40,159 bases of DNA, taken from a virus. Positions 1-40,159 of this stretch are shown in pieces (the first letter of the stretch is position 1; each line of letters opens with the position of its first letter). Both the position numbers and the translations under genes were made by a program. The stretch is taken from UHGV virus genome UHGV-0014911; one strand, given 5' to 3'. The notes under the pieces are model-generated. The model was not told the origin of the DNA. It searched no databases and saw only the letters and a program-made list of their open reading frames with translations.

Positions 1-90
1 TTGCCTCCCCCCCGTTGATGGGTAAAATAGCCGCAATTTTTCGTTTTCAACAAGCGCGGCGCGATGCCGCTTACTCAAGAAGAAAGAATT

Positions 91-165
91 ATGACGTTGT
101 CTCCTTATTTGCAAGAGGTGGCGAAGCGCCGCACTTTTGCCATTATTTCTCACCCCAATAATTAA
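91..165 (+). pseudogene. prfC: 5' fragment of a peptide chain release factor 3 gene: 22 codons ([22 protein letters not shown]) then two foreign codons and a stop; candidate attL junction
   Basis: ATG at 91 translates to [22 protein letters not shown], which I recall as the N-terminus of enterobacterial RF3, just before its GTP-binding loop. The frame then reads NN-stop instead of continuing, and the DNA turns AT-rich. An integrase gene follows 220 bp downstream. Confidence 0.55.
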
Positions 166-319
166 GCCTAAATTAAAGCTCTTTTACTTTTTCAAAGTCC
201 TTTCAGTTAATTGATGTTTGGTTTTATAAGTCATTTAAATACAGTTAGTTATGTGGCTTCTTTAATTGAAAATTCTTTCATGTAACTTTAAATCGATCAG
301 GTTGCTTTCATCAAAAATC

Positions 320-376
320 TGTACATATGCTTGTACATAATGTACAAAGCAGCAGAGGTGTTTTGCGATTTGTACA
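320..376. promoter_or_regulatory. Cluster of four TGTACA hexamers directly upstream of the integrase start, including a 17-bp palindrome TTGTACATAATGTACAA (331-347); candidate integrase-promoter operator or arm-type recombination sites
   Basis: TGTACA occurs at 320, 333, 341 and 371, within 60 bp and ending 10 bp before the int ATG at 386. The middle two form perfect 8-bp inverted arms. Confidence 0.4.
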
Positions 377-385
377 AGGTGAGTA

Positions 386-1621
386 ATGGCGCTGTCTGAT
401 GCGTGGTTGCGTTCAGTCGTTGGAAAGGAACGTGATAAGGTTTTGGTTAAATCCGATCGTGATGGTCTGTCTGTCAGAGTATCACCGAAAGGTCGCGTAG
501 TGTTCCAATATCGTTATCAATGGGCAGGGAAAGGTGAGCGCCTTGATATCGGAACTTACCCGGCAACTGGATTAAAAGAGGCCAGAGAAGAAGTTATCCG
601 TCTCCGTGGTGAACTCGAGTCAAACCGCAATCCACGATTAGTCAAGCAGGCTGAAAAACGAAAAGCTACTGAAGCCATGACGGTAGAGTCTGTGATCTGT
701 GCCTGGTATGAAGCATATTGTGTAAAAAATAAAAAAGGTTCTGAACAGATACTCCGCTCGTTTGAGCTGCACCTGTTCTCTAAAATCGGGAATATCCCTC
801 ACGATGCAGCTACATTGCATGATTGGTTAGAAGTCCTGGAGCCTCTTAGCACCAAGACTCCAGCAATAGTAGACCGATTGCTAATTAACGCAAAGCAGGC
901 TCATGTCTGGGCGTATAAGAGAAAGCTCATTGAAACTCGCCCACTGTCGGATATCACGGGTAAAGATATGGATATCCGTAAAGGTCAGAAAAAACGGTTT
1001 CTGACACATGATGAAATTAACATCCTTTATGCTGCGATCGATGGTTCTCGAATGGTTCCTAAATACCGAGCCTTCATTAAACTATTGCTGCATTTTGGTT
1101 GCCGTAGTTCAGAGCTAATTACTGCTAGGGTGGATGATTTTGATTTCATAAATAAGGTATGGACTGTACCACCAGAACGACATAAGACTGGGGACATAAC
1201 AGGCGAACCGCTAAAGCGGCCCATTATTGAACCGGTTGAAGAGCTTATAAAATACGTTATCTCTATGAACAACGGTTCCGATATGCTTTTTACTAAGGAA
1301 GGAAGCAGGGAGCCAGTTGGTCGGACATCATTGCAGTCGCTGCCTTACAATTTAATGCAGTTCGCATGGCGACGTTTGGGGTATCAATTTCCTCATTGGT
1401 CTCTTCATGATTTGAGACGAACAGCACGAACAAACTTTTCTGATCTTACTGCTCCTCATATTGCTGAAATAATGCTTGGTCATAAACTGCCAGGTGTATG
1501 GCAAGTTTATGATAAGAGCGATTATCTAGAAGAACAGCGTAAAGCTTACTGGGCATGGTGGGAGAGGGTTGAATCGATCGTTACTTGTACTGACTTAATC
1601 TCCAACGGACAGTTTGCGTAG
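386..1621 (+). CDS. int: Tyrosine site-specific integrase (P4/CP4-57-like, N-terminal arm-binding domain)
   Basis: 411-aa ORF with RBS AGGTGA before the ATG. The C-terminus carries the tyrosine recombinase signature (HDLRRTARTN ... LGHK ... VYDKSDY). It sits next to the apparent attachment junction. Confidence 0.9.
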   Translation: MALSDAWLRSVVGKERDKVLVKSDRDGLSVRVSPKGRVVFQYRYQWAGKGERLDIGTYPATGLKEAREEVIRLRGELESNRNPRLVKQAEKRKATEAMTVESVICAWYEAYCVKNKKGSEQILRSFELHLFSKIGNIPHDAATLHDWLEVLEPLSTKTPAIVDRLLINAKQAHVWAYKRKLIETRPLSDITGKDMDIRKGQKKRFLTHDEINILYAAIDGSRMVPKYRAFIKLLLHFGCRSSELITARVDDFDFINKVWTVPPERHKTGDITGEPLKRPIIEPVEELIKYVISMNNGSDMLFTKEGSREPVGRTSLQSLPYNLMQFAWRRLGYQFPHWSLHDLRRTARTNFSDLTAPHIAEIMLGHKLPGVWQVYDKSDYLEEQRKAYWAWWERVESIVTCTDLISNGQFA

Positions 1622-1779
1622 CCAGAGCGTAATCATATCTGCCAGTCCGCTGCGGATACCTTGTGTACTGGGTTTTTAGCCAGACTACGTTAACCGGTAG
1701 CTTCAGTATTTGGGGTGTCGGCAGGAGTTTGATGGTTTATTGGGTTACTGTGGGACTAAGGATGTAGGGATGCCAATCG

Positions 1780-2913
1780 ATGAATTATGAAAAATATCAT
1801 AGCACAAACAGAAGCAAGGGTTTGCGAACCTTCTGCTACTTAATTTATTATGTGCAGGTGATTTTTAATGTGATGAAGTGTTTTATGACTCGCGGAAACT
1901 TTGATTTTATAAACTCTAACGTGGTTTTCTCAGAAGCCGATAAGTCATTGTGGATTGATCTCATTAACACCGATTGTATTTGGTATGATATGATAATTAA
2001 TCCTCCTGATGATATAAGAACAAATAAGATAATAAAGAACTATCTCAGAATTATGGAAAAATATACGAGGGAAAGCTGTGAAAAGAGATTTATTTATTTC
2101 TTAGGTTCAAGAAAAAAAGTGAGGTTTTCAACCAAGAAACAGCCTAGGTATAACCCATTCACAAAAAATATAGTATTCACTCTGTTGATTGGCAAAGAAG
2201 AGCGAAAGCTTCGGATAAAATATTCCTTTTGCACGTTTACGCAGAATGGGGTAGTGAAGGTAACTCCAAATGTTAGAGTAACTGAGAAGTTTCTCTACAT
2301 TGAATATGAAAATGGCAATTTATGTGTGATGTCAGTTCATGATTTCGTAAACGGACATTATATTGATTTAGGAATTCATACAGAAGTGCATTACGTAGGA
2401 TATACACGTCATCCGCATCGGCGCCCTGTTGATTTTATTCACCGTGGCTTATCAAAGATGCTGTATAGCGTTTCAAATGACGATAATGATTTTTTTGTTT
2501 GTTTTAGTATATTTAATCCAAGGATTATATCTCTGAATAATAAATGTAATGTGGTCTTTAATATTTCAAATTCTCTACTGGATGAAATTGATGTTGATAA
2601 TGAGGGGAGAATTATTGAAAACTGCTTAATACGTTACTTTGATCCTAAGCTTCAAGATGATGACAAGGAAAGTAAAAGGTCAGATTTAAATAAAATGTTT
2701 ATGGACCTGGTGGAAAATAAAAAAATTAAAAAAATATACGTTAATTTTCAATATGAAAGGAATAATGAGTATTTCTGCTTTTACTCTAAAGTTGTTCCGC
2801 CGAAATTTCATCATTTCTTTGTGTTGGATTTTTCTGATGGCAAGATAAATATTGATAGAGACCAGGATATGATGACTCAGATGGCATTGTGCATGGGGTA
2901 TTATAATTATTAA
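1780..2913 (+). CDS. Hypothetical protein, AT-rich orphan cargo gene; start codon uncertain (alternative ATG at 1873)
   Basis: 377-codon open frame in visibly AT-rich DNA with Lys/Asn/Ile/Phe-rich composition, in sharp contrast to the flanking phage genes. No motif recognised by eye. It occupies the integrase-adjacent slot where related phages carry conversion or defence cargo. Confidence 0.5.
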   Translation: MNYEKYHSTNRSKGLRTFCYLIYYVQVIFNVMKCFMTRGNFDFINSNVVFSEADKSLWIDLINTDCIWYDMIINPPDDIRTNKIIKNYLRIMEKYTRESCEKRFIYFLGSRKKVRFSTKKQPRYNPFTKNIVFTLLIGKEERKLRIKYSFCTFTQNGVVKVTPNVRVTEKFLYIEYENGNLCVMSVHDFVNGHYIDLGIHTEVHYVGYTRHPHRRPVDFIHRGLSKMLYSVSNDDNDFFVCFSIFNPRIISLNNKCNVVFNISNSLLDEIDVDNEGRIIENCLIRYFDPKLQDDDKESKRSDLNKMFMDLVENKKIKKIYVNFQYERNNEYFCFYSKVVPPKFHHFFVLDFSDGKINIDRDQDMMTQMALCMGYYNY

Positions 2914-3122
2914 TATTTCGCCTGATGCCAACTCAAAATCTTTTTTGTCGCATCCATTGTGGATTAATATTCAGAGGTAAGGGGTATCTGCGGAATTTAT
3001 ATTTTGCAGGATGAGCATACAATACATGATATAACATCTGTTTTTGGCACAGAGCATATAGTCAGATTATGTTTAGTTCTGTGCCATAGATGGATATTAT
3101 CTCACCTCTTGGCTAACTCTCA

Positions 3123-3317
3123 TTACTCAATAACTCCAGCAAATCTGTATATTTTGCGTGATGCCCATTTATTTGGGCAGGATTTAATATCAGGATCTGG
3201 AAAATCTGGCCTGTATTTCTGGCCTGTCCTCCTGTTTACGCTGTTCCAGCGAAGCACCGTCGATATTGAAACGCCACAGAATTCGGCGACTTGTTTTGTT
3301 GTCATTAAGTTGCTCAT
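3123..3317 (-). CDS. AlpA-family small DNA-binding protein (excisionase/regulator-like)
   Basis: 64 aa with RBS GGAGG 7 nt upstream of the ATG at 3317. Pattern HTH ... TVLRW ... YRPDFPDP ... W resembles the AlpA/Xis-like family typical of P4-type integrase modules. Confidence 0.55.
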   Translation of the reverse strand: MSNLMTTKQVAEFCGVSISTVLRWNSVNRRTGQKYRPDFPDPDIKSCPNKWASRKIYRFAGVIE

Positions 3318-7021: not shown

Positions 7022-7571
7022 TCATCACTGGAAAGTGGAAAAACAGCCTGAGTGGTACGTGAAAGCTGTCAGAAAAACTATCGCGGCGTTGCCGGGGGGT
7101 TACGCTGAAGCTGCTGAGTGGCTGGATGTAACAGAGAACGCATTATTCAACCGCCTTCGTGCAGATGGCGATCAGATTTTCCCGCTGGGATGGGCAATGA
7201 TTTTACAACGTGCTGGTGGAACTCACTTCATTGCTGACGCTGTGGCGCAGTCTGCAAATGGCGTCTTTGTGTCTCTTCCTGACGTCGAGGATGTGGACAA
7301 CGCCGATATTAACCAGCGTCTGCTGGAAGTCATCGAACAGATCGGGAGTTACTCAAAGCAGATTCGTTCGGCAATCGAAGATGGGGTAGTGGAACCGCAT
7401 GAGAAGACAGCAATTAACGACGAACTGTATCTTTCAATTTCGAAGCTCCAGGAGCATGCAGCACTGGTCTACAAAATCTTCTGCGCTCCAGAAAAGAGTA
7501 ACGCCCGCGAGTGTGCAGCTCCGGGCGTCGTGGCGTCGATTGCTTCTGGTTGTGGAGAAACTAACGCATGA
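7014..7571 (+). CDS. Early-region protein, possibly a CII-like regulator by position (family not confirmed)
   Basis: 185 aa, GTG start with RBS AGGAGG 5 nt upstream, immediately after the cro-like gene. Confidence 0.4.
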   Translation: MGNHHWKVEKQPEWYVKAVRKTIAALPGGYAEAAEWLDVTENALFNRLRADGDQIFPLGWAMILQRAGGTHFIADAVAQSANGVFVSLPDVEDVDNADINQRLLEVIEQIGSYSKQIRSAIEDGVVEPHEKTAINDELYLSISKLQEHAALVYKIFCAPEKSNARECAAPGVVASIASGCGETNA

Positions 7572-7716
7572 ATAGTTTAACGGCAAATAACCGTTTGTCG
7601 CAACAGCTGGTGGTCAGCGTCGCTGAACACCTGTTGTTACGGCATGAATGCAGATTACCAAATCACCTGGCTGTAAGTAACCACAGAGAACTTTACCTGA
7701 TTGTGGGGGGCGAGTT

Positions 7717-7896
7717 GTGCAGGAACTTAACCGCTGGTTTCGTGACGGAAGAGGACTTTATGTTCATGTTATTCGTTGGGAGCCAGAAACACAGCGCGTT
7801 ATCTATCTTCGCAAAGACTACCCGCATGAGTGCTTTAGTCCTTTGTGGAAATTCAGGCGTGATTTTGTTGAGTGTGAAGGACCACCAGCATATTGA
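7717..7896 (+). CDS. Small hypothetical protein (59 aa, GTG start), absent from the ORF track
   Basis: Manual translation gives VQELNRWFRDGRGLYVHVIRWEPETQRVIYLRKDYPHECFSPLWKFRRDFVECEGPPAY, preceded by a G-rich RBS-like run, in a 600-bp stretch otherwise lacking a convincing gene. Confidence 0.3.
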   Translation: MQELNRWFRDGRGLYVHVIRWEPETQRVIYLRKDYPHECFSPLWKFRRDFVECEGPPAY

Positions 7897-8170
7897 TTCT
7901 GCAATTCCGGGACGTTACACTGTCTCTGCACCTTATAAAGCGGGTGCCGGGATTGGCGTCCTGAAATTGTCAACGGCGATGTATGACGCGCCAGCGTCTT
8001 TTTTATCGTCCGCATTTGCTCACATCCAGATTATGGTGGGCTGGGCGGGGGCACCGAAAGGTGCGCCGGTCTCCGTTGACGCCGGTTACGCCAACCCCGT
8101 CCAGTTCACCACCAGTGAAATTGGCGTTTCCGGTGGTGGAAGTTTTTCACTGTCAACGGAGGCTGCCATC

Positions 8171-8728
8171 ATGGCTACGATCCCAGCCCTCACTCAACCT
8201 GAAATCACCATTGACAACGGCCAGGCCGTTACCACTTCTTTGGCTGTTGCCAACTTCTTCTCCAAGCGTCACGACGATGTGCTGAAAAAGATCCGCACTC
8301 TGGATTGTTCCCCTGAGTTTTGTGCCCGCAATTTTGCGGAGACATCGATTTCGGTAAATCAACCGAACGGTGGTACACGCAAGCTCCCTTGCTATCAAAT
8401 CACACGAGACGGTTTTGCATTTCTTGCTATGGGTTTCACGGGTAAACGTGCTGCCCGGTTCAAAGAGGCATACATAAATGCCTTTAACCAGATGGAAAAA
8501 CTGCTTTCAAAGCCATCCACGCTGAGCGATGCCGCAGATAACGCCAGCGTGCTTTACTCCCACCTGTCGGTAATCCACAAGGTCTGGCTGCAGCAGCTTT
8601 ATCCCATGTTGGCAAAAGCCGAATCCCCGCTGGCTGTAAGTCTGTATGACCGCATCAACGACGCGGCGCTACTGGCCAGTCTCATAAATTTGTCGCTGAA
8701 CCCTTCAGAGGTAAGGGGGCGCAAATGA
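8171..8728 (+). CDS. Rha-family phage regulatory protein (antirepressor-like)
   Basis: pRha-type motif (TTSLAVANFFSKRHDDVLKKIRTL ... YQITRDGFAFLAMGFTGKRAARFKEAYINAFNQME). Start placed at the ATG at 8171 with RBS GGAGG 8 nt upstream. The frame stays open upstream to 7568, so the N-terminal boundary is uncertain. Confidence 0.7.
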   Translation: MATIPALTQPEITIDNGQAVTTSLAVANFFSKRHDDVLKKIRTLDCSPEFCARNFAETSISVNQPNGGTRKLPCYQITRDGFAFLAMGFTGKRAARFKEAYINAFNQMEKLLSKPSTLSDAADNASVLYSHLSVIHKVWLQQLYPMLAKAESPLAVSLYDRINDAALLASLINLSLNPSEVRGRK

Positions 8729-27969: not shown

Positions 27970-28325
27970 TGGCCCGTATCGGGGGAACCTGTTATTTCAA
28001 AATTGACGGTCAGCAGCTATCGCTGACCGGCGGCATTGAGGTGCCCATGAACAGGACGGTCAATGATGACATCATCAGCCTGGACGGTTCAGTGGACCGC
28101 AAGGAAACTCACCGTGCGCCTTATGTCAAAGGGACCTTCAAGGTGCCGAAGAATTTTCCGGTGAACAAAATCACCTCGTCTGATGAGATGACTATCACTG
28201 CCGAGCTGGCGAACGGTCAGGTCTATGTACTGTCGTCTGCCTGGCTGCACGGCGAAGCGAACCATAATGCCGAAGAAGGCACGGTTGATCTTGAGTTCCA
28301 CGGTGAAGAAGGGGATTACCAGTAA
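27969..28325 (+). CDS. Tail tube protein (Mu gpM-like)
   Basis: 118 aa, RBS GAGGAG, immediately after the sheath gene. Confidence 0.8.
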   Translation: MARIGGTCYFKIDGQQLSLTGGIEVPMNRTVNDDIISLDGSVDRKETHRAPYVKGTFKVPKNFPVNKITSSDEMTITAELANGQVYVLSSAWLHGEANHNAEEGTVDLEFHGEEGDYQ

Positions 28326-28594
28326 TGAAAGAGCTTGAGTTAAAGAAACCGATTACTGCTCATGGCGAGACACTCTCCGTACTGGAGTTTGATGAGCCCA
28401 CCGGGAAGGATGTCCGCGAGCTGGGGTATCCCTACCAGATGAATCAGGATGAGTCAGTCAAACTTCTGGCGCATGTGGTGTCGAAATACATTGTGCGGCT
28501 GGCGAAAGTGCCGCAAAGCTCTGTCGACCAGATGTCTCCGGCAGACCTGAATGCAGCGGCGTGGCTTGTGGCTGGTTTTTTCCTCCAGGCCTGA
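28325..28594 (+). CDS. Tail assembly chaperone (short form)
   Basis: 89 aa, directly upstream of the tape measure gene; slippery TTTTTTC at 28576-28582 near its 3' end. Confidence 0.7.
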   Translation: MKELELKKPITAHGETLSVLEFDEPTGKDVRELGYPYQMNQDESVKLLAHVVSKYIVRLAKVPQSSVDQMSPADLNAAAWLVAGFFLQA

Positions 28595-28743
28595 CGGCTG
28601 AATACCTCACTGATCGCTTCTTTGACTGCGCCAGCTACTGGCGCATTAATCCTTTCGAATTGCTGAATATGCCGATCAGTGAAATTCCCTTACTGGTCAG
28701 TCAGGCAAACAGGATAGAGCAGGAGAAACGCACACATGGCTGA
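28325..28743 (+). CDS. Tail assembly chaperone, predicted -1 frameshift fusion product
   Basis: Slippage at T-TTT-TTC (28576-28582) into the -1 frame joins ...AAWLVAGFF to PPGLTAEYLTDRFFDCASYWRINPFELLNMPISEIPLLVSQANRIEQEKRTHG, ending at 28743 and overlapping the tape measure start. Confidence 0.6.
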
Positions 28744-30568
28744 ATTTGAGCTTAAGGCGTTGATCACCGGTGTCGACAGGCTTTCTCCCGCGCTGTCGAA
28801 AATGCAAAAGAAAATCCGGGGATTTAAACGCCAGGCGGAAGAAGCGTCACAGGGTGGGCTGGCGCTTGGTGGCGGACTGGCAGCGGGTCTGACGCTTTCC
28901 CTGAAATCTTATGCCGATCAGGAAAACGCCGCCACCGGGCTGAAAGTCGCCATGATGGATGCGAACGGCGAGGTTGGAAAGAGCTTTCAGGACATCAATA
29001 AACTGGCTATTGGCCTGGGTAACCAGCTACCCGGTACAACGGCTGATTTCCAGAACATGATGCAGATGCTGGTGCGTCAGGGGATCCCGGCAGAAAACAT
29101 TCTGGGTTGTGTGGGTAAAGCGACAGCTTATCTTGCGGTACAACTGAAAAAAACACCGGAAGCGGCTGCCGAGTTTGCCGCAAAGATGCAGGATGCTACC
29201 GGAACGGCGTCAGAAGACATGATGGGGCTGTTCGACACTATCCAGAAGGCGTTTTATCTGGGCGTTGACGATACCAACATGTTGTCCTTCTTCACTAAAA
29301 CCAGTTCTGTTCTGAAGATGGTGAACAAGGATGGTCTTCAGGCTGCACAGAGCCTTGCCCCCATCAGCGTCATGATGGATCAGATGGGGATGAACGGGGA
29401 GGCGGCAGGTAATGCCCTGCGAAAAGTTATCCAGTCAGGATTAAGTGTTAAGAAAATCAGGGACGTCAATAAAGTCATGGCCCGCCAGAAACTCGGGGTA
29501 CAGCTCGATTTTACTGACGGCAAAGGAAGTTTTGGCGGTCTTGATAACATGTTTAAGCAACTGGCAAAGTTGCGAAAACTGACTGACGTTAAGCGAACTA
29601 ATGTACTTAAGGCAATATTTGGTGATGATGCCGAAACCATTCAGGTGGTCAATGCGCTGATCGATAAAGGAAAGGATGGTTACGATCAGATCCAGCAGAA
29701 GATGAATAAACAGGCCAGCCTGAATAAACGTGTTCAGGCACAGCTTGGTACGTTGTCCAACCTGTGGGAGGCAATGACGGGGACCGCAACTAACGGCCTT
29801 GCAGCTATTGGCGGCGCATTTTCTGGTGACGCTAAAAATATCACGCAATGGCTGGGGGAGTTGGGGGAGAAATTCACGAAGTTTGCGGATCAAAATCCCC
29901 GGGTTATTCGCGGCGTCGTCGGGCTTGCTGCCGGTCTTGCGATTCTGAAACTGGGATTGATGGGCGTGGGCAGTGCCATCAGTATCGTCAGCAGGATCAT
30001 GTCGATGACGCCGATTGGCATGATTGCGACGGCGATTGCCCTGGCTGCGGGATTAATTATCACTAACTGGGATGTTGTTGGACCTTATTTCAAGAAGCTC
30101 TGGGAAACCATTGGTCCTTATTTTGAGGTTGGCTGGGAACTCCTTAAGAAAGTTTTTGCCTGGTCGCCGCTGGGGATGGTGATCAATAACTGGGGACCGG
30201 TTGTTAAGTGGTTTCAGGATATGTGGGACAAGCTGAAGCCAATTATTGAGTGGTTTACTGACAGTTCCGGTGACACGGTCGATGCCATTAACTCTGCGCA
30301 GTGGGGCGCAGGTGCCTATGATGCTTATGGGACGGGAATACCGGCGTGGGGATACACACCTTATCCGGCGGTGGATCCGGCTCAGTCAAACAACGCCTCC
30401 GGTGCCACAGGTCCGAATCCCTTCATGATTAACAAAGCTTCTGCGCCAAAAGTTGATGGTGAGATCAAGGTATCTTTTGTGAATATGCCACCAGGTATGC
30501 GGGTTATGGAAACGCGATCCAGCGGTATTGATGTCAGCCATGATGTTGGCTATACGCGGTTCAGGTAG
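28736..30568 (+). CDS. Tail tape measure protein
   Basis: 610 aa, long helical Ala/Gly/Met-rich protein with a hydrophobic segment, placed after the frameshifted chaperone. Confidence 0.9.
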   Translation: MAEFELKALITGVDRLSPALSKMQKKIRGFKRQAEEASQGGLALGGGLAAGLTLSLKSYADQENAATGLKVAMMDANGEVGKSFQDINKLAIGLGNQLPGTTADFQNMMQMLVRQGIPAENILGCVGKATAYLAVQLKKTPEAAAEFAAKMQDATGTASEDMMGLFDTIQKAFYLGVDDTNMLSFFTKTSSVLKMVNKDGLQAAQSLAPISVMMDQMGMNGEAAGNALRKVIQSGLSVKKIRDVNKVMARQKLGVQLDFTDGKGSFGGLDNMFKQLAKLRKLTDVKRTNVLKAIFGDDAETIQVVNALIDKGKDGYDQIQQKMNKQASLNKRVQAQLGTLSNLWEAMTGTATNGLAAIGGAFSGDAKNITQWLGELGEKFTKFADQNPRVIRGVVGLAAGLAILKLGLMGVGSAISIVSRIMSMTPIGMIATAIALAAGLIITNWDVVGPYFKKLWETIGPYFEVGWELLKKVFAWSPLGMVINNWGPVVKWFQDMWDKLKPIIEWFTDSSGDTVDAINSAQWGAGAYDAYGTGIPAWGYTPYPAVDPAQSNNASGATGPNPFMINKASAPKVDGEIKVSFVNMPPGMRVMETRSSGIDVSHDVGYTRFR

Positions 30569-30667
30569 TGTACAAAATGATTAATGTGTTTTTGTCTGGC
30601 ATAATTTGGGTTTTCAACTTTAAGTAGTTAATATAATCACTCCTTACAAATGATTGAAGGGATGATT

Positions 30668-31162
30668 ATGCGTATCTTTGTGTTTTTTATATCTGCACTT
30701 TTATCTTTTAACTTGGCAGCGGAAGAGTGTAAGTTCAGCTTTAATGAGTCAGAATTAATCTCTTCTATAGGTATTGCACCAGTTAAGCAAGAGATAGTAA
30801 AGGATGAAGGAATAACTAAGCGTCAATATGAATTCAGGAGAGAATTGTCTTTTGAAGAAATGCTTGGCGATGATGCTGATGAAAAATATGAGCCGCAGTT
30901 TTATATATCTGTTTATAATCCATCATGTCCACAAAAGGTTATTATTTGGTTTTTCAAAGACAATAAAAACACACAAGCTTTAAGTAATGAGGTCCTTGCT
31001 GGTAGAGCATTCAAGTATTTAACTGGTGTTAATGAAAGTATTTTTGAAAATAAAATGAAAAAGTTTTCAAAGGTACAGTCATTTGAATCCTTTGATGAAA
31101 GGACGGACTCTAAATTTATAAAGAGTGGTAATGTTTATTCCATTGATGTTCAACTCAGATAG
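30668..31162 (+). CDS. Secreted hypothetical protein encoded by an AT-rich moron inside the tail operon
   Basis: Start placed at the ATG at 30668. N-terminal signal peptide MRIFVFFISALLSFNLAAEE, AT-rich DNA, TATAAT box about 30 bp upstream, hairpin plus T run downstream (about 31184-31245). Confidence 0.6.
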   Translation: MRIFVFFISALLSFNLAAEECKFSFNESELISSIGIAPVKQEIVKDEGITKRQYEFRRELSFEEMLGDDADEKYEPQFYISVYNPSCPQKVIIWFFKDNKNTQALSNEVLAGRAFKYLTGVNESIFENKMKKFSKVQSFESFDERTDSKFIKSGNVYSIDVQLR

Positions 31163-31252
31163 TAATTGAAAATATTAGAACCCCGCTACATCTTCTGCGA
31201 TGTAAATAACTGACAAAGCAGATTTGGCGGGTTTTTTGTATCCGGAGTTTAT

Positions 31253-32581
31253 ATGACGTGGAAAGACAGGCTTCAGGATGCGTCATTTCGCGGCGTACCG
31301 TTTAAGGTTGAAGAAGAAAGTGCGGGAACCGGTCGCCGTGTGGAAACACACGAATATCCGAACCGCGACAAGCCCTATACCGAAGATCTGGGAAAAGTCA
31401 CTTTCCGCCCGTCCATCACAGCTTATGTGGTGGGAGATGACTGCTTTGACCAGCGCGATCGCCTGATTGACGCGCTGAATAAACCCGGTCCCGGCACGCT
31501 TGTCCACCCGACATATGGTGAGCTGAAAGTCTGTGTTGACGGGGAAGTTCGGGTCAGCACATCGAAGAGTGAAGGGCGTATTGTCCGCTTTGACCTGAAG
31601 TTTGTCGAAGCAGGAGAACTCTCTTACCCCACATCAGGTGCGGCGACGGCGCAGACGCTGATGTCATCCTGTTCTGCACTGGATGACTGCATCAGTGACA
31701 GCTTCAGCGGTTTCAGTATCGATGGTGTGGCGGATTTCGTGCAGAACGACGTTATCGGTAATGCCAGCATAATGCTGGGGTATGTTTCTGATGCGATGAA
31801 AGTGGTGGATTCTGCCGTATCGGATGCCGCCAGGCTGTTGCAGGGGGATATCTCGGTACTTCTGCCGCCGCCATCGTCAGGCAAAAATTTCGTTGAGCAG
31901 GTGCAGAAAATGTGGCGTACCGGGAAACGCCTTTATGGTAACGCCAGCGACCTGGTCACCATGATCAAAACGCTTTCCGGTGTCAGCCTCGGCAGCGATC
32001 TGCAACCGCGCGGCGTCTGGAAAACGGACAGTAAAACCACCGCCACGGCGACGCAGCAGCGTAACGTGGTTGCCAGCACCCTTCGTACGACCGCAATCAG
32101 CGAAGCGGCGTATGCCGTCACCCGATTGCCTGCGCCAACAACTTCCGCGGTGATGCAGAATGCCGCAGTGGGGCAGGCAACAACACCCGTGCAGAGCACT
32201 GGCTGGCCTTCCGTCACGCATCCGGCACTGAACAATGCACCGGCGGTGAAAAACACGGTTGACCTGCCGACGTGGGAAGAACTGACCGACATTCGCGACA
32301 CACTGAATACGGCAATTGATAAGGAGTTGTCCCGTACAACCAGCGATGCGCTGTTTCTGGCGCTGCGCCGGGTGAAAGCAGATCTGAATGCGGATATCAA
32401 CACGCGCCTTGAACAGTCTGCACGGATCATTCAGCGCACACCGGATGAGGTTTTACCCGCGCTGGTGCTGGCGGCGACCTGGTTTGATAACGCGGCGCGT
32501 GACGCGGACATTATCCGGCGTAATGCCATTACGCATCCCGGCTTTGTGCCGGTGATCCCTCTGAAGGTGCCAGTGCAATGA
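31253..32581 (+). CDS. DNA circularisation protein (Mu gpN-like)
   Basis: 442 aa, N-terminal motif WKDRLQDASFRGVPFKVEEES ... HEYPNRDKPYTEDLG, immediately after the tape measure/moron. Confidence 0.8.
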   Translation: MTWKDRLQDASFRGVPFKVEEESAGTGRRVETHEYPNRDKPYTEDLGKVTFRPSITAYVVGDDCFDQRDRLIDALNKPGPGTLVHPTYGELKVCVDGEVRVSTSKSEGRIVRFDLKFVEAGELSYPTSGAATAQTLMSSCSALDDCISDSFSGFSIDGVADFVQNDVIGNASIMLGYVSDAMKVVDSAVSDAARLLQGDISVLLPPPSSGKNFVEQVQKMWRTGKRLYGNASDLVTMIKTLSGVSLGSDLQPRGVWKTDSKTTATATQQRNVVASTLRTTAISEAAYAVTRLPAPTTSAVMQNAAVGQATTPVQSTGWPSVTHPALNNAPAVKNTVDLPTWEELTDIRDTLNTAIDKELSRTTSDALFLALRRVKADLNADINTRLEQSARIIQRTPDEVLPALVLAATWFDNAARDADIIRRNAITHPGFVPVIPLKVPVQ

Positions 32582-33657
32582 ACGACAATGTCACGCTACG
32601 GGTAAATGGCCGGGAGTGGAATGGCTGGACATCGGTGCGCATCGGTGCCGGTATTGAACGGCTGGCGCGGGATTTCAGTGTGGAGATCACCCGCCAGTGG
32701 CCGGGAGATGAGGGTATTACCACGCTTCAGCCGCGCATTAAAAACGGTTCAAAAGTGGAGGTGCTGATTGGTGATGAGCTGGTGATCACCGGCTGGGTGG
32801 AGGCGACGCCCGTTCGTTACGATGCCCGTTCGGTCAGCACCGGTATTGCCGGACGCAGTCTGACCGCTGACCTGATTGACTGTGCAGCCGAACCGACACA
32901 GTTTAACGGACGATCGCTGGTACAGATTGCGCAGGCGCTTGCTGCGCCTTTCGGCATTGAGGTGGTGAACAGCGGTGCGCCGTCGGGTGTTATTCCTGAC
33001 GTCCAGCCTGATCACGGTGAAACGGTGATTGAGGTAATCAACAAAATACTCGGTCAGCAGCAGGCACTGGCTTACGACGACCCGCACGGCAGGCTGGTGA
33101 TTGGCGGTATTGGCTCAACGCGGGCACATACTGCGCTGGTACTCGGGGAAAACATCCTTTCCTGCGATACGGAGAAGAGTATCCGGGAGCGGTTTTCTGT
33201 TTACCAGGTGGCGGGGCAGCGTGCCGGAAACGACGATGATTTCGGTGAGGCCACCACCACCGCGCTGCGGGCCCGCACAGAGGACGCATTTATTGCCCGT
33301 TACCGTCCGATGTATATCAGGCAGACAGGGCAGGCCACGGGGGCAGGCTGTATTGCGCGTGCTGACTTTGAAGCCCGACAACGGGCGGCGCGGACGGATG
33401 AAACCACCTATGTGGTGCAGGGCTGGCGACAGGGTAACGGTACGCTGTGGCAGCCCAACCAGCGGGTGATTGTCTTCGATCCGGTCTGTGGTTTCGACAA
33501 TACCGAACTGCTTGTTTCGGAAGTCACGTTTACTCAGGACCAGAACGGCACCCTGACGGAAGTCCGTGTCGGCCCACCTGATGCTTATCTGCCTGAACCC
33601 GAAGCCCCCGGCGCGCGGAAAAAGAAAAAAGCCAGAGTACAGGAGGACCCGTTCTGA
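32578..33657 (+). CDS. Baseplate hub / tail protein (Mu gpP-like)
   Basis: 359 aa, conserved position between the circularisation and spike genes. Confidence 0.7.
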   Translation: MNDNVTLRVNGREWNGWTSVRIGAGIERLARDFSVEITRQWPGDEGITTLQPRIKNGSKVEVLIGDELVITGWVEATPVRYDARSVSTGIAGRSLTADLIDCAAEPTQFNGRSLVQIAQALAAPFGIEVVNSGAPSGVIPDVQPDHGETVIEVINKILGQQQALAYDDPHGRLVIGGIGSTRAHTALVLGENILSCDTEKSIRERFSVYQVAGQRAGNDDDFGEATTTALRARTEDAFIARYRPMYIRQTGQATGAGCIARADFEARQRAARTDETTYVVQGWRQGNGTLWQPNQRVIVFDPVCGFDNTELLVSEVTFTQDQNGTLTEVRVGPPDAYLPEPEAPGARKKKKARVQEDPF

Positions 33658-34205
33658 TGAGGACGATTGAAGCCATGCAGCGACAACTCCTCGGCCTGAT
33701 TGGGCGGGCCGTGGTGAAAAGCATCAGTGCCGCCACGAAATGTCAGACCGTGGATGTGTCCCTGATTGCCGGTGAACCCAAAGCCGGGGTTGAACATCTT
33801 GAACCCTACGGTTTTACCGCAAGGGCAAACAGCGGTGCGGAAGCGGTGGTGTTGTTTCCGGATGGCGACCGTTCTCATGCGGTGGTTGTTACGGTGTCGG
33901 ACCGTCGCTACCGCCTGAAAGGGCTGCAAACGGGGGAGGTGGCTGTCTATGACGATCAGGGGCAGTCCGTGACGCTGACCCGGGAGGGGATCGTGGTGGA
34001 CGGTGCAGGTAAAACGATCACGTTTCGCAATGCGCCTAAGGCACGTTTTGAAATGGACCTGGAAGTGACAGGACAGGTGAAAGACCTGTGCGACTCCGGC
34101 GGCACCACCATGTCAGCGATGCGGCTTGCCTATAACGGCCATCGTCACAGAGAGAACGGTCAGGGCAGTAACACCGACAAACCTGATAAAGCGATGGAGG
34201 CATGA
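33657..34205 (+). CDS. Baseplate assembly protein V (spike; Mu gp45-like)
   Basis: 182 aa, beta-rich spike-like N-terminal domain, typical position. Confidence 0.75.
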   Translation: MRTIEAMQRQLLGLIGRAVVKSISAATKCQTVDVSLIAGEPKAGVEHLEPYGFTARANSGAEAVVLFPDGDRSHAVVVTVSDRRYRLKGLQTGEVAVYDDQGQSVTLTREGIVVDGAGKTITFRNAPKARFEMDLEVTGQVKDLCDSGGTTMSAMRLAYNGHRHRENGQGSNTDKPDKAMEA

Positions 34206-34630
34206 TGGAACTGTGGCTGACGGTGAACGGTAAACGCACCTGCGCCAGCGCACCGCTGGATCCGCTGACCCGCGCCGTTGTGATTTCCCTGTTTACCTGG
34301 CGGCGGGCGGAGCCTGATGATAATGCCGACGTCCCGATGGGATGGTGGGGGGATACCTGGCCTGCGGTACAGAATGACCGTTACGGCTCCCGACTGTGGC
34401 TGCTTCAGCGCAGCAAACTGACCAATCAGCTGGTGCAGACGGTAAGGGGGTATATCCGCGAATGCCTGCAATGGATGATTGATGACGGCGTGGTGTCCCG
34501 TATTGATTTGGATATCCGCCGTACCGGGATTAATGAACTGGGTAACAGTATCACTCTCTGGCGTCGTGACGGACCGGTAATGATTTCTTTTGATGATCTG
34601 TGGAGTGCGATAACGCATGGCGGACAGTGA
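34202..34630 (+). CDS. Baseplate protein (Mu gp46-like; gpW/gp25 family)
   Basis: 142 aa, directly before the baseplate J-like gene. Confidence 0.7.
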   Translation: MMELWLTVNGKRTCASAPLDPLTRAVVISLFTWRRAEPDDNADVPMGWWGDTWPAVQNDRYGSRLWLLQRSKLTNQLVQTVRGYIRECLQWMIDDGVVSRIDLDIRRTGINELGNSITLWRRDGPVMISFDDLWSAITHGGQ

Positions 34631-35675
34631 ATTTCAGCGCCCGACGCTGGCAGAAAATATCAGTATGCTCCGTAACGATTTATTCGCCAGGCTGGACGTC
34701 AGCGACACGCTCCGGCGCATGGATGAAGACGTGCGGGCAAAGGTGTATGCGGCGGCGCTGCATACGGTTTACGGTTACATCGATTATCTGGCAATGAACA
34801 TGCTGCCTGACCTGTGCGATGAGTCCTGGCTGGCGCGACATGCTGCGATGAAACGGTGTCCGCGCAAGGGGGCCACGGCTGCCAGCGGGTATATGCGCTG
34901 GGAAGGTGTCAGCGATGGCCTGAAGGTGACTGCCGGGAGCGTGATTCAGCGCGATGACCTGGTTCAGTACACGGCAACTGCTGATGCAACCAGCTCCGGT
35001 GGTGTCCTGCGCGTGCCGATCACCTGCTCAACTACAGGCGCGGTCGGTAACGCTGACGACGGTACGGCATTAATCCTGGTCACGCCGGTGAATGGTCTGC
35101 CGTCTTCCGGTGTGGCTGACACCCTGACAGGCGGATTTGATACTGAAGAGCTGGAAACGTGGCGCGCCCGCGTCATTGAGCGGTATTACTGGACGCCGCA
35201 GGGCGGGGCTGACGGGGACTATGTCGTCTGGGCTAAAGAAGTGCCCGGCATTACCCGCGCATGGACATACCGTCACTGGATGGGAACGGGAACTGTCGGT
35301 GTGATGATTGCCAGCAGTGACCTGATTAATCCCATTCCGGAAGAATCAACGGAAACGGCGGCAAGACAACATATCGGGCCACTGGCCCCGGTGGCAGGCT
35401 CTGATTTGTATGTGTTCAGGCCGGTGGCACATACGGTGGATTTTCATATCCGCGTGACGCCGGACACACCGGAAATACGGGCTGCCATCACCGCCGAGTT
35501 GCGTTCGTTCCTGCTGCGTGATGGTTATCCGCAGGGAGAACTGAAGGTGTCACGTATCAGTGAGGCGATTTCCGGTGCGAACGGGGAATACAGCCATCAG
35601 TTGCTTGCACCGGCGGACAATATCACCATTGCGAAAAATGAACTGGCGGTTCTGGGGACGATTTCATGGACGTGA
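34617..35675 (+). CDS. Baseplate J-like protein (Mu gp47-like)
   Basis: 352 aa, position and size typical of the J family. Confidence 0.8.
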
Positions 35676-36250
35676 CAAACGATGATTACATCCGTCTGTT
35701 GTCGGCACTGCTGCCCCCTGGTCCGGCGTGGTCAGCCAGCGATCCGGCGATTGCCGGTGCAGCACCGTCATTAACCCGCGTTCATCAGCGTGCGGATGCC
35801 CTGATGCGGGAGCTGGATCCGCGCACCACCACTGAACTGATAAACCGCTGGGAGCGTCTGTGCGGCCTGCCGGATGAATGTATTCCGGCGGGAACGCAGA
35901 CCCTTCGCCAGCGTCAGCAACGGCTGGATGCGAAGGTTAATCTGGCGGGCGGCATCAATGAGGATTTTTACCTTGCACAGCTTGCTGCCCTGGGCAGACC
36001 AGACGCCACCATCACGCGATACGATAAAAGCACGTTCACCTGCTCATCGGCCTGTACTGACGCAGTGAATGCGCCGGAATGGCGGTATTACTGGCAGGTC
36101 AACATGCCAGCCGCCACCAACACCACCTGGATGACATGTGGCGATCCCTGTGATTCCGCACTGCGTATCTGGGGCGACACCGTTGTCGAGTGTGTGCTTA
36201 ACAAACTCTGCCCGTCGCATACCTACGTAATTTTTAAATATCCGGAGTAA
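35666..36250 (+). CDS. Tail protein (Mu gp48 / YmfQ-like, DUF2313-type)
   Basis: 194 aa, Cys-rich C-terminus, immediately upstream of the tail fiber gene. Confidence 0.7.
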
Positions 36251-36253
36251 TCC

Positions 36254-37012
36254 ATGCATCGTATAGACACGAAAACCGCGCAGAAGGATAAGTTCGGCGC
36301 GGGTAAGAACGGTTTTACCCGTGGTAACCCCCAGACCGGCACGCCAGCCACCGATCTGGATGATGACTACTTTGACATGTTGCAGGAGGAGCTTTGCAGC
36401 GTGGTGGAGGCATCCGGTGCCAGCCTGGAGAAGGGGCGGCACGACCAGTTGCTTACCGCGCTTCGTGCGCTGCTGTTAAGTCGCAAGAATCCGTTTGGCG
36501 ATATCAAATCGGATGGCACGGTGAAAACAGCTCTCGAAAACCTTGGTTTGGGAGAAACGATAAATAAAGCCTCCGGAGCTATGCAGAAATCGGCTAATGG
36601 AGCTGATATTTCTGATGTATCAGCCTTCCGAAATGCGCTCCAGTTAGGGACCGCTGCAACACGAGATGTTGGAGCAGATAATGCCTCGAAGTTACTGGAT
36701 TTAGACAGCTTCAGGTCAATGATGTCAGGTAATGGCTACATCTACATTCCATGCATTGCGACGACAGGAAACCCGGTGAAACTTATGTTGCAGTGGGGAA
36801 CGGTGGCAACACAAAAGGGAGCTGATGCTGGATATGCCTTACCATTTGCTTTTCCCTATGCAGGCTTGTTTGCGACCGGAAACCGTGGAACATCTGGCTA
36901 CAATGCCGCGATGAATGTGCGTATTGCCAGCAGAACGCATATCAGTATTCAGAACTGGTCGCCATCCGGAGAGGGCACCGAAGATTGTTGTTTTATCGCG
37001 TTGGGGTATTAA
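36254..37012 (+). CDS. Tail fiber protein
   Basis: 252 aa; conserved fiber N-terminus ([36 protein letters not shown]) with a variable C-terminal domain; RBS GGAG. Confidence 0.85.
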
Positions 37013-37014
37013 GA

Positions 37015-37449
37015 ATGAATAAATTTTATAAAGGATCTTTCTATCCGGAAGCTCTGAAAGAGGTATATATCAACGCTGGCTCATGGCCTGAAAACGGCGT
37101 TGATGTTGATGATGAAACAATGGCAATTTACACGAGCGTAGCGCCAAAAGGTAAAATTCTGGGGGCAGATAAAGACGGTAATCCTACATGGCTGGATATT
37201 CCTCCCCCGAACCATGAAGAGTTAATCCGGATAGCAGAAAACGAACAGAAGAGGCTTCTAACCCATGCTGATGCTGTAATGCTCGACTGGCGAACTGAGT
37301 TGATGCTGGGTGAAATAAGCGACGCCAACAAAGCTAAACTGTCGGCGTGGATGGCTTATAAAAACGAAGTTAAGGCGATTGATGCGACAACCGCTCCCGA
37401 GCATGTTAACTGGCCGGTTCCTCCGGATGGTGGGGCCATCAGGTATTAG
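37015..37449 (+). CDS. Tail fiber assembly protein (Tfa chaperone)
   Basis: Start placed at the ATG at 37015. Typical Tfa C-terminus (LSAWMAYKNEVKAIDATTAPEHVNWPVPPDGG). Confidence 0.85.
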   Translation: MNKFYKGSFYPEALKEVYINAGSWPENGVDVDDETMAIYTSVAPKGKILGADKDGNPTWLDIPPPNHEELIRIAENEQKRLLTHADAVMLDWRTELMLGEISDANKAKLSAWMAYKNEVKAIDATTAPEHVNWPVPPDGGAIRY

Positions 37450-37661
37450 ATGCGTTTGGCCTGTCAATATGCATTAAAATTGATGTAGTACAGATAGTGT
37501 GAGGGACAACCCCTTATTTAGTGATTTTCTTCTTCCCTACACGATTGTGTAGGGATAGAGGTTTAATAAAAGCCGGAACCGTTAATTATTGTCGACGCTC
37601 AAATTGGTTATGTAACTTAATCTATTGTGTTGTTTTTTTTTGAACTTAATCCAATTAGATT

Positions 37662-38745
37662 CTATAATTTTGATAGTGGTGACGGTCTTTTTTTTATCAG
37701 CTTGGTTAAATTTCTATATGCAATTTCAGATCTTAACCCACTAACTCCAGTATAAGATGTCATTGTTTTTCTTAACTTATTATTGAAGTGTGGAGATTGA
37801 TATTTGCGTAGAACATCCATAATGTCTTTTATATCACAGGAGTCAGCCACTATATCAAAATCACGATATACATTACCATTTTGTTCAGGAATAATAATGG
37901 TTGGTTTGTACGCTTCTATAGACTCAAGTGCAGCAGTACTTCCTGATGTTAGGACAATATCAGCTTCACTTAGTGCCTCGATGAAAGTTTTGTTTTTGTC
38001 AGATAATTTAACGCTATTGTCTAATAGGGGTGAATATATATCAATGTGTTCTGGATGTGGTCGTAATATAACGTTATAACTCTTCTGTTGTAAACATTTT
38101 ACAATATCTCTAACTATTTTAGTTGGTACTGTACTTTGTAGGGCAAAAAGAAATGATAATTGTCCTGTTTTAATTTTTATTTCTATTTCTCTTGCTGTTG
38201 TGTTATAATGCTGTGCTGTGCTGTGCTGTGCTGTGCTGTGCTGTGCTGTTATCTAGTTTTGGAAGTCCAAGACTTATTACCCTATTTCTAAATTTTTCGT
38301 TGAATTTATTAATAAAAGCCTCGCCAAACACACCGAAGTAATCAAAGCAATCAAAGTTATTCTCATATCCTTCCCAGTTTTGATAAAATCCATGTTGAAG
38401 CCCAATGAAAATTGGACTTTTATAACTGTTATTCATGGCTTTCTTTAAATCTAATTCCGGACCTGCAACACAACTGGTCATCAAAACAGCATCATAATTA
38501 ACTGCATTTTTTGTAAAATCTAAAAGAACCTCTTCTTTTGTTCTGTTGACAAAATTAAAATTAGAATCAATTTTATCTACCAAAAGAATGTTTTCTTTAA
38601 TTTCCAGTAGTTTTCTGTGATTTGGATCGGATATTCTAGGGAAGAATATATAGTCACATATTCCTCCGTTCTTACGGATTTCATAAACTAAGGGAAGCCA
38701 GTTTTCTAAACATCTGTAAGTAAACGCAGTAAATAATATTCGCAT
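37662..38745 (-). pseudogene. AT-rich transferase-like cargo gene split into two reading frames at a pentanucleotide repeat (currently frameshifted; candidate phase-variable gene)
   Basis: The N-terminal segment (ATG at 38745, MRILFTAF...) runs into the repeat and stops at 38203. A second frame is open with no stop and no start codon from 38252 to 37662, spanning the repeat, and encodes ...ILRPHPEH ... IVLTSGSTAALESIEAYKPTIIIPE... The two frames meet exactly at the repeat. Confidence 0.7.
38210..38249. repeat. Perfect pentanucleotide microsatellite (GCTGT)x8 inside the coding sequence
   Basis: Eight uninterrupted GCTGT units on the plus strand, encoding (STAQH)n on the minus strand, located exactly where the frame breaks. 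Confidence 0.95.
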
Positions 38746-38784
38746 TGTTGTATGTTGTCCAATTGATAATAATGCATTCTTCTG

Positions 38785-38813
38785 ATTGTACAATGGTTTG
38801 TTGTTTGTTACAA
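38785..38813 (-). promoter_or_regulatory. Candidate sigma-70 promoter of the transferase-like gene (TTGTAA, 17-bp spacer, TACAAT)
   Basis: Read on the minus strand, about 40 nt upstream of the ATG at 38745; the -10 overlaps the palindrome ATTGTACAAT. Confidence 0.4.
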
Positions 38814-38896
38814 CAACGCTGCAGAGTTATAAGTTAGAATATGCTCGGGAGATTATTAGTGATAATTAAATCTGAATAGAAACCAAATCTTGTACG

Positions 38897-39209
38897 CCCA
38901 AGAAAGGGATAAAACTTCTCAGTTTGACGGATAGCATCGATACGAGTACGCCTATGGGCAGATTCTTCTTTCATGTAATGGGCACTGGCAGAAATGGAAA
39001 GGGAGCTTATAATCGAACGCTACCGGGCAGGTTTAGAAGCTGCGCGCGCGGAAGGTCGCATTGGTGGCCGTAGACCAAAACTAACGGATGAGCAGTGGGC
39101 GCAGGCAGGGAGATTAATTGCTGCAGGGGAAACGCGTCAGCGCGTGGCAATAATTTACGATGTAGGAGTGTCAACACTATACCGAAAATTCCCTGTAGGC
39201 AGGGCTTAG
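38897..39209 (+). pseudogene. Remnant of a Gin/Pin/Hin-family serine DNA invertase (5'-truncated and internally frameshifted)
   Basis: One frame reads ...LSLTDSIDTSTPMGRFFFHVMG; a second frame, offset as if 2 bp were deleted, reads ALAEMERELIIERYRAGLEAARAEGRIGGRRPKLTDEQWAQAGRLIAAGETRQRVAIIYDVGVSTLYRKF. These match the invertase middle and C-terminal HTH; the N-terminal catalytic part is missing. Confidence 0.7.
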
Positions 39210-39258
39210 ACATGATGCAGGCCGCCGGTAAAGATTAATGCTGGCAGCCAGCACAACT

Positions 39259-39525
39259 TTAGAGCCCAACCTGGCGAACTGTCGGGAACTCAGACACCAG
39301 CCACATATCGGCCTCTTCAAACATATCCTCCAGCATGCGGTTCAGCTTTTCCCGATCGCTTTTGCTGGCATCGCTATTCAAGGCGTTTGCCTGCATCGGT
39401 TTCACCTTCACTTCGGCATAAGGGAAAATCTGATGCACTTGCTTCGTCAACTCAGCCAGGATGATCTCTCTGGCCCCCGCCAATCCTTCAACATTACGCT
39501 TGTCATAAACCAGTTCAACGAACAT
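39259..39525 (-). CDS. DinI-family protein (MsgA-like)
   Basis: 88 aa starting MFVELVYDKRN with an acidic C-terminal region; LexA boxes lie just upstream. Confidence 0.75.
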   Translation of the reverse strand: MFVELVYDKRNVEGLAGAREIILAELTKQVHQIFPYAEVKVKPMQANALNSDASKSDREKLNRMLEDMFEEADMWLVSEFPTVRQVGL

Positions 39526-39542
39526 ACAAGCCTCCGGAAAAA

Positions 39543-39586
39543 TACTGTGATTGTATACAGTAATTTTACTGTAAGAATAAACAGTG
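39543..39586. promoter_or_regulatory. Two tandem LexA (SOS) boxes upstream of the MsgA-like gene
   Basis: TACTGTgattgtatACAGTA (39543-39562) and TACTGTaagaataaACAGTG (39567-39586); both fit CTGT-N8-ACAG. Confidence 0.7.
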
Positions 39587-39644
39587 TCAAGGCGAGCTGA
39601 GTGCGAAGAGGTGATGTATTTTTGTTACCCTTAGTTACAAACAG

Positions 39645-39677
39645 AAAACCCCAGACCGTGAAATCTGGGGTTCTTTT
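39645..39677. terminator. Bidirectional Rho-independent terminator
   Basis: Hairpin CCCCAGA-ccgtgaaa-TCTGGGG flanked by A and T runs on either side; downstream of the dinI-like gene on the minus strand. Confidence 0.6.
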
Positions 39678-39910
39678 AAAGTGCACGTGCATATTTTTGT
39701 CTTTTCTCGGTCTGCCTACTGTCTGGTCAGTGTCCGTAAGTGGCTGTTTTTATTTCCTCTTTCCGGTTGCAGTCCTATCAAAAGTGGTGGAGCTGGCGGG
39801 AGTTGAAACCGCAGACACGTCGTATGCAAGAACGTGCTGCGGTTGGCTGGTAAGCTTCCGATAGTGCGAGTATTGAATGATTTCCAGCCGTTACTGATTT
39901 TACGTGCTAA

Positions 39911-40159
39911 TTAGTGAACAAACCACTCGTCAGCAGACTCCCGGGTATCTTTCAGAGTTTCCTGAACAAAAGTTTTAGCTGAATCTTTATCGGCGGTGCG
40001 CGTAACAGAAAGGCCATCGTTGCTGGTGGCTTTTACGATCACCTCTACATCGTCATAACGCTTACTGATGCGTCGAGTTAATTCTTCCTTTAACGCATCC
40101 ACAGCACCGTTTGGCATTTTAGTCATCTTCTCTTTGGCTATGCAGATCTCAATACGCAT
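39911..40159 (-). CDS. dinI: DinI-like DNA-damage-inducible protein
   Basis: 82 aa, MRIEICIAK ... ESADEWFVH, closely resembling E. coli DinI; the start codon sits at the last bases of the window. Confidence 0.8.

Follow-up and report, generated by a model that had tools for sequence, protein, structure and literature searches.

A probable left attachment site of a temperate phage within the 5' end of Escherichia coli prfC

Does the start of the viral genome UHGV-0014911 preserve a junction between a phage and the gene for release factor 3 (RF3), prfC, and if so, what becomes of that gene? The DNA analysed here, which we call 'the window' throughout, is a single stretch of 40,159 nucleotides. 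A preliminary description of its sequence read positions 91-156 as the start of RF3 up to the GTP-binding loop, saw divergence from there into AT-rich DNA with a stop codon two codons on and an integrase gene starting at 386, and proposed an attL junction within the coding sequence of prfC. Each of these readings holds, and positions 1-385 are very probably the attL of a complete-looking temperate phage, site-specifically integrated at the 5' end of E. coli prfC.

In an alignment with the chromosome of E. coli K-12 (MG1655), every base of window 1-155 agrees with 4609324-4609478. In MG1655, prfC begins at 4609414, past the end of yjjG at 4609323, and the match runs from the first base past yjjG into codon 22 of prfC, lacking only the third base of that codon. 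Position 156 is C in the window and G in K-12, a synonymous difference, and there the similarity ends abruptly; G+C content is 49% in 1-155 and 29.6% in 156-385. The alignment to a prophage-free prfC locus, which had been suggested as a check, places the breakpoint at 155/156; a shared block, or core, lies at 142-155. What is left of prfC in the window is a stub of 24 codons that begins with the ATG at 91 (Table 1); its equivalent in E. coli strain 06-00048 is annotated in RefSeq as an incomplete CDS without a C-terminus. The segment ahead of the stub, 1-90, includes the native ribosome-binding region of prfC and, presumably, its promoter; with the phage integrated, the stub ORF and int both lie downstream of it. 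The resemblance to prfC is not due to chance: the prfC portion is matched in 5425 of 5426 complete E. coli genomes, and the junction together with the integrase start, counted when a match covered at least 80% of window 1-400, in 701 of the 5426. A tRNA or other RNA gene was considered as the integration target and rejected: ARAGORN found no tRNA or tmRNA in the whole window and Rfam gave zero matches on 1-400, in line with the tRNA-like sequence that had been sought before and not seen.

Table 1. Features of the left attachment site, of the integration functions and of the right end of the window (coordinates are window positions)
Feature	Position	Strand	Remarks
Host DNA, yjjG-prfC intergenic spacer	1..90	+	100% identical to MG1655 4609324-4609413
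prfC 5' stub	91..165	+	host codons 1-22, then phage-derived AAT AAT TAA (157-165)
Identity block (core) ATTATTTCTCACCC	142..155	+	common to attL, attR, attB and attP; codons I-I-S-H-P
P' arm of phage attachment site	156..385	+	29.6% G+C; matches cdtI/Ayreon attP
YTTTCA direct repeats, three copies (TCCTTTCAG, TTCTTTCATG, TGCTTTCATC)	~197-205, 275-284, 303-312	+	P' arm
TGTACA, candidate arm-type integrase-binding sites	320-325, 332-337, 341-346, 371-376		P' arm
Tyrosine integrase, 411 aa	386..1621	+	transcribed away from attL
Candidate excisionase (recombination directionality factor), 64 aa, small helix-turn-helix	3123..3317	-	sub-threshold Pfam
DinI-family gene, last prophage gene before P arm and attR	39911..40159	-	Pfam DinI, E 5e-17

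The core can be bounded on both sides by comparison with strain 06-00048, whose attL and integrase start are identical to window 1-400 and whose complete chromosome record shows both ends of the prophage. In a three-way alignment, the 14-bp ATTATTTCTCACCC is the sole block common to the window attL, the 06-00048 attR and the K-12 attB. To its left, at position 141, attL has C (the host allele), and attR and the attP of phage cdtI have A (the phage allele); to its right, at position 156, the alleles are C (phage) and G (host). Strand exchange therefore took place inside the 14 bases 142-155. In the free phages cdtI and Ayreon, attP consists, in order, of a P arm, a mini-ORF, a P' arm and int, and window 156-385 is near-identical to the DNA right of the core in both. 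The mini-ORF reads ATG ACA AGC CTT TTG GCC GCA GAG GTA GCG AAA AGA AGA ACC TTT GCA ATT ATT TCT CAC CCC AAT AAT TAA. The two phages are not the same at the left bound: Ayreon (locus L005) has C at 1486, the equivalent of window position 141, where cdtI (locus L004, also 1486) and the 06-00048 attR have A, and the identity of Ayreon with E. coli attB grows from 14 to 20 bases.

The P' arm carries two families of short repeats. Four of the window's 11 TGTACA hexamers fall within 57 bp (320-376), just upstream of int, a clustering that has a chance of ~4e-10 under a Poisson model with a background rate of 7 per 40 kb. All of the repeat families found in the cdtI attP are centred on this hexamer, among them a 35-nt direct repeat, TGTACATATGATTGTACATAAT..., that is present on both arms, directly 5' of the substitute prfC start on one and 5' of int on the other. 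The block TCTGTACATGCGYTTGTACATAATGTACAAA ... TTTGTACAAGGTG is invariant in elements of Trabulsiella and Pantoea, whose integrase is 82% identical, while the surrounding arm diverges, so that the TGTACA block is unchanged across three genera. Most likely, these repeats on both arms represent arm-type sites for the N-terminal domain of the integrase. The second family, YTTTCA, is also kept in the Trabulsiella and Pantoea elements, with flanks that diverge; its copies might be bound by an accessory protein, for instance an excisionase or a bending factor of the host.

The ORF at 386-1621 encodes a tyrosine integrase with three Pfam domains: Arm-DNA-bind_3 (residues 3-90), Phage_int_M (103-192) and Phage_integrase (205-379). 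The first (PF13356, the DUF4102 family, E 2.1e-16) and the last (PF00589, E 6e-17) are the N-terminal and catalytic domains of the IntSXT subgroup of tyrosine recombinases, defined by Smyshlyaev et al. in 2021 (PMC8138268). The Arg, His-x-x-Arg, His and Tyr residues, assigned by eye, lie in the translation within GCRSSEL, HDLRRTARTNF and LGHKLPGVWQVYD. At the DNA level, int is 95-99.9% identical to the int genes of PhiR63_1, 2H10, Ayreon, cdtI and the Stx1a/Stx2c phages (96% for cdtI), and the int-attP module as a whole, window 156-1621, is found at 95-99.9% identity in 33 phage records. The integrase of the cdt1 phage and Int-SXT have been placed in one 'SXT cluster', the members of which insert at prfC (PMC8138268). 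By way of that placement the window integrase, whose element likewise lies at the 5' end of prfC, can be assigned to the published cluster. It is very unlikely to share the ~99% identity with Int-SXT by which the SXT/R391 family is defined (PMC2791158), and no entry labelled SXT was among the 120 homologues listed.

The same prfC breakpoint recurs with relatives of this integrase, at 50-97% identity, from another E. coli and from Trabulsiella guamensis, Pantoea stewartii, Pseudomonas, Shewanella and Vibrio diabolicus. In every one of these, a prfC stub (in Pseudomonas ending ...HPD) precedes the integrase by ~230-290 bp. A scan of genome contigs with a single protein returned 4 loci. The core itself varies at synonymous third positions, being ATCATCTCCCACCC in Trabulsiella and ATTATCTCGCACCC in Pantoea. 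Judging from these junctions, the whole integrase clade is directed at the codons that open the conserved GTP-binding loop, and it is probably the conservation of this target that allows the site to work across so many genera. A partner for excision may be encoded nearby, on the opposite strand at 3123-3317; the protein is a candidate excisionase by its size, its closeness to int and its type of fold, with sub-threshold Pfam matches to HTH_17 (E 4e-4) and MerR (E 9e-4). Between the two, directly 3' of int, a 377-aa ORF (1780-2913, plus strand) lies in DNA of 34% G+C (1622-3000). It belongs to no Pfam family and is present in 62 of the 5426 complete E. coli genomes, following int in the one that was checked (06-00048); a moron or defence gene is a possibility.

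Where, then, is the other end of the prophage? The core occurs once in the window, at 142-155, and no second copy is found there even with 2 mismatches allowed; attR therefore lies outside, beyond the window's end, as had been supposed. The final base of the window coincides exactly with the start codon of the dinI-like gene at 39911-40159, and the last ~320 bases (~39840-40159) show an almost perfect alignment with the gene located ahead of the attP of cdtI and of the attR of 06-00048. In the latter, the core starts 268 bp past the equivalent of position 40159. From this spacing, the prophage should be ~40.3 kb in length, and the window falls less than 300 bases short of attR. The exact prophage is in no complete E. 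coli genome searched, the best match covering 74% of window 28000-40159, and the description of attR is therefore taken from relatives. The attR of the prophage itself, ~270-280 bp past the window end, is inferred to resemble theirs: beyond 40159 we would expect a P arm with TGTACA sites, then ATGACAAGCCTTTTGGCCGCAGAGGTAGCGAAAAGAAGAACCTTTGC(A/C)ATTATTTCTCACCC, then GGACGCCGGTAA..., leading into the body of prfC. Among the 5426 complete E. coli genomes the attR junction is present in 692, against the 701 with attL, a prevalence of ~13%. Near the right end there is also a second DinI-family gene (39259-39525, minus strand), just upstream of which are two LexA-box-like sequences of the form CTGT-N8-ACAG (39545-39560 and 39569-39584). 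In relatives, similar paired LexA-like boxes lie upstream of the counterpart of the 39911-40159 gene, in the region that corresponds to DNA outside the window.

Between these ends, the window encodes a complete temperate-phage gene set, in keeping with prfC-integrating phages of the cdtI / Stx1-O103 type. Its Pfam matches include a CI-like repressor (S24 peptidase domain), a Rha/Ash protein, a Q antiterminator and replication functions; morphogenesis is represented by terminase, portal and tail sheath, together with tape measure, baseplate and tail fibre proteins, and lysis families are present as well. The phage combines a lambdoid early region with a contractile tail. In the early region, Rfam places isrK (7928-8004, 62 bits) and C4 antisense RNA (8029-8116, 81 bits) back to back on the plus strand, inside a mechanical ORF (7568-8728) whose C-terminal part has Ash and Rha domains; from these matches, the region is predicted to be an antisense-controlled antirepressor module of the P1/P7 style. 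The late region has a contractile-tail baseplate-type module (sheath, DNA_circ_N, Baseplate_J), whereas that of the 06-00048 prophage is of the lambda-like, long non-contractile type. Compared with 06-00048 (loci L001 and L003), window 1-3000 and 39840-40159 show the same attL, int, next ORF and right-end dinI-like gene, and the phages in between differ. Fixed ends with differing tail modules point to modular exchange; a similar exchange, the Stx1a/Stx2c 'phage shift' at prfC, has been proposed (PMC10132054). The cargo of the window includes no stx or cdt genes and has, instead, a low-G+C (33%) ORF of ~362 aa (37560-38793, minus strand) that is split into two frames by a pentanucleotide tract, a perfect (GCTGT)x8 on the plus strand at 38210-38249. 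Nine or six copies would restore a single frame, and the ORF looks like a slipped-strand phase-variable gene that is now off. Its only Pfam match, below threshold, is to a putative glycosyltransferase family (DUF6716, E 0.009), and it has zero matches in the 5426 complete E. coli genomes or in 50,697 phage records. Next to it, at 38994-39209 (plus strand), is a 71-aa remnant of a serine invertase/resolvase comprising only the C-terminal HTH_7 domain, the intact counterpart of which in 06-00048 is a 196-aa 'recombinase family protein'.

Could the junction be something other than the attL of a working phage? The preliminary description had itself named one alternative, that the segment is not prfC but a complete small gene with no link to an attachment junction, and an uninterrupted ORF of 33 codons does span 64-165. 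We regard this as hardly conceivable: the exact identity of window 1-155 to the prfC 5' region refutes it, and the same bases run on into full-length prfC in the 4,700-odd genomes that are without the element. An integrative conjugative element of the SXT/R391 type would explain why the target codons equal those of SXT/R391 and why the integrase falls in the same published cluster (PMC8138268), but it is phage genes that fill the window, and Pfam found no conjugation families among the 20 largest or key ORFs; the element is therefore not an SXT/R391 ICE. Its closest int matches, moreover, are all phages, and at ~40.3 kb it is far from the size of SXT (~100 kb; PMC2654960) or R391 (89 kb; PMC5812530), so the chance that it is one of them is vanishingly small. 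A defective remnant, fixed in place and with an attL-like structure that is past recombining, is somewhat easier to imagine. The attR is not visible in the window, and the right-end cargo contains both the truncated invertase (38994-39209, HTH_7 only) and the frame-shifted gene. Against this, int is full length with all three domains; repressor, Q antiterminator, terminase, portal, sheath, tape measure, baseplate and fibre proteins are encoded; the right end is intact to the window's last base; and near-identical att/int modules are found in complete phage genome records, cdtI, Ayreon and PhiR63_1 among them. We consider such a fossil highly improbable, and return to the reading of the junction as the attL of a complete-looking temperate phage.

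How such a phage would integrate into prfC can be pictured as follows. The integrase would recombine attP with the chromosomal codons for I-I-S-H-P, the start of the RF3 GTP-binding loop, by exchange within the 14-bp core. At attL, this would leave the P' arm and int behind the native prfC control region and the 24-codon stub. In attR, the P arm would provide a substitute translation start (AAAGAGACAACAATT-ATG) and 21 codons, fused in frame to the body of prfC, so that full-length RF3 would remain encoded, differing in its first 7-8 residues only. Whether an intact prfC is rebuilt at the far end had been left as a question, and for relatives the answer, as read from the 06-00048 attR, is that a full-length frame is restored: prfC is annotated there with 528 aa (529 in K-12), its phage-encoded N-terminus fused in frame, and the protein is identical to that of K-12 at 521 of 521 positions from residue 8 (K-12 residue 9) onward. 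In the 27 nt to the left of the core, phage and host differ at 8 nucleotides in 6 codons, all of the differences being synonymous (EVAKRRTFA); of 200,000 random sets of 8 substitutions, 0 kept that peptide. The extreme N-termini differ, MTSLLAA in the phage versus MTLSPYLQ in the host, and this part of RF3 varies naturally (e.g. MSNPFLE in Pantoea, MTKQAA in Pseudomonas, MSGNKV in Shewanella and MSNTPFLS in Vibrio). The start region of the phage resembles that of the host (TCAA-GA-GA-A-AATTATGAC). Together, the synonymous-only divergence, the natural-looking N-terminus and the host-like start region argue that the hybrid RF3 would be functional, and we infer that the rebuilt prfC is expressed. 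The synonymous-only pattern could also stem from the prfC of another bacterium, rather than from ongoing selection in the phage.

The contrary view, that integration abolishes prfC, that the loss is tolerated because RF3 is non-essential and that the ORF at attR is silent, has some support in print and in the sequence. One survey of prophage sites counts prfC as a gene 'disrupted' by phages (PMC3603311), and Ogura et al. (PMC2323221) pointed out that the authentic promoter and ribosome-binding site are lost and that prfC is non-essential, leaving the expression of the rebuilt gene as an open question. A simple consensus scan of the P arm revealed no plus-strand sigma-70 promoter upstream of the rebuilt prfC; all of its matches lie on the minus strand, as would suit a promoter of the dinI-like gene. 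Yet a knock-out would not call for a full 528-aa frame at attR, as in 06-00048, nor for free phages that carry a 21-codon substitute with a host-like start region, nor for 8 nucleotide differences in the conserved part that are all synonymous. At the same prfC site, work by Hochhut and Waldor in 1999 reportedly established that SXT provides a functional new 5' end and promoter. On balance, a knock-out seems improbable. A further possibility, itself rather doubtful, is that integration swaps promoters, with functional significance for int and RF3 alike. In the free phage, a P-arm promoter and the mini-ORF would lie upstream of int, and in the lysogen the host prfC promoter and the stub ORF would take their place; RF3, in turn, would come to depend on a phage promoter embedded in TGTACA sites, beside a divergent dinI-like gene controlled by LexA boxes. 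No terminator-like site was found in window 1-700, including the interval between the prfC promoter region and int, and a promoter scan of the same 700 bases returned one weak promoter-like site (1-28), no more than expected by chance.

The element belongs with the prfC-integrating phages of E. coli, and the phenomenon is already known and common. The prfC attachment site has been documented for SXT/R391 from 1999 and, from 2007, for phages of E. coli (Stx1, Stx2c and CDT-I). In such phages—cdtI (AB285204, the CDT-1 phage), O103 Stx1, CC119 Stx1a/Stx2c, Ayreon, 2H10 and PhiR63_1—int and the P' arm are 95-99.9% identical to the window's DNA. In cdtI and Ayreon, attP has the same core and a phage-borne substitute for the prfC 5' end; in cdtI and the 06-00048 prophage, the same dinI-like gene lies beside the P arm. 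In 2007, Ogura et al. (PMC2323221) described replacement of the N-terminus in the same way for the Stx1 phage that an O103 strain carries in prfC, and typing routinely targets Stx1a and Stx2c phages at this site (PMC10132054). The SXT/R391 elements are conjugative, whereas the window element is a phage; both groups tolerate synonymous variation in attB, and the published SXT/R391 attP consensus, ATcATcTCtCACCCtGA (a 17-bp attachment core), overlies ATTATTTCTCACCC in register. The next three bases after CACCC are CAA in the window but tGA in SXT. A comparable strategy is that of phage 21 and e14, which integrate in icd and carry a near-synonymous copy of the displaced gene end, such that a full-length product remains encoded. 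Those elements replace the 3' end of their target, leaving the native promoter and start in place, whereas the window phage replaces the 5' end, and must therefore supply the signals for starting transcription and translation, too.

What the window adds to this picture is modest: the exact 14-bp block and its bounds, an end point ~270 bases before attR, the synonymous-only argument for the hybrid RF3, the conserved TGTACA arm module and the clade-wide breakpoint. Annotators should read the 24-codon 'hypothetical protein' at 91-165 as the prfC stub and place the prophage boundary at 155/156. In lysogens of this kind, prfC should not be scored as disrupted, contrary to at least one survey (PMC3603311). 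Were the promoter swap to prove true, it would couple the level of integrase to the state of integration, and it would let the phage, or Int, control the termination-recycling factor of the host, so that stop-codon readthrough would be affected in about one-eighth of E. coli strains.
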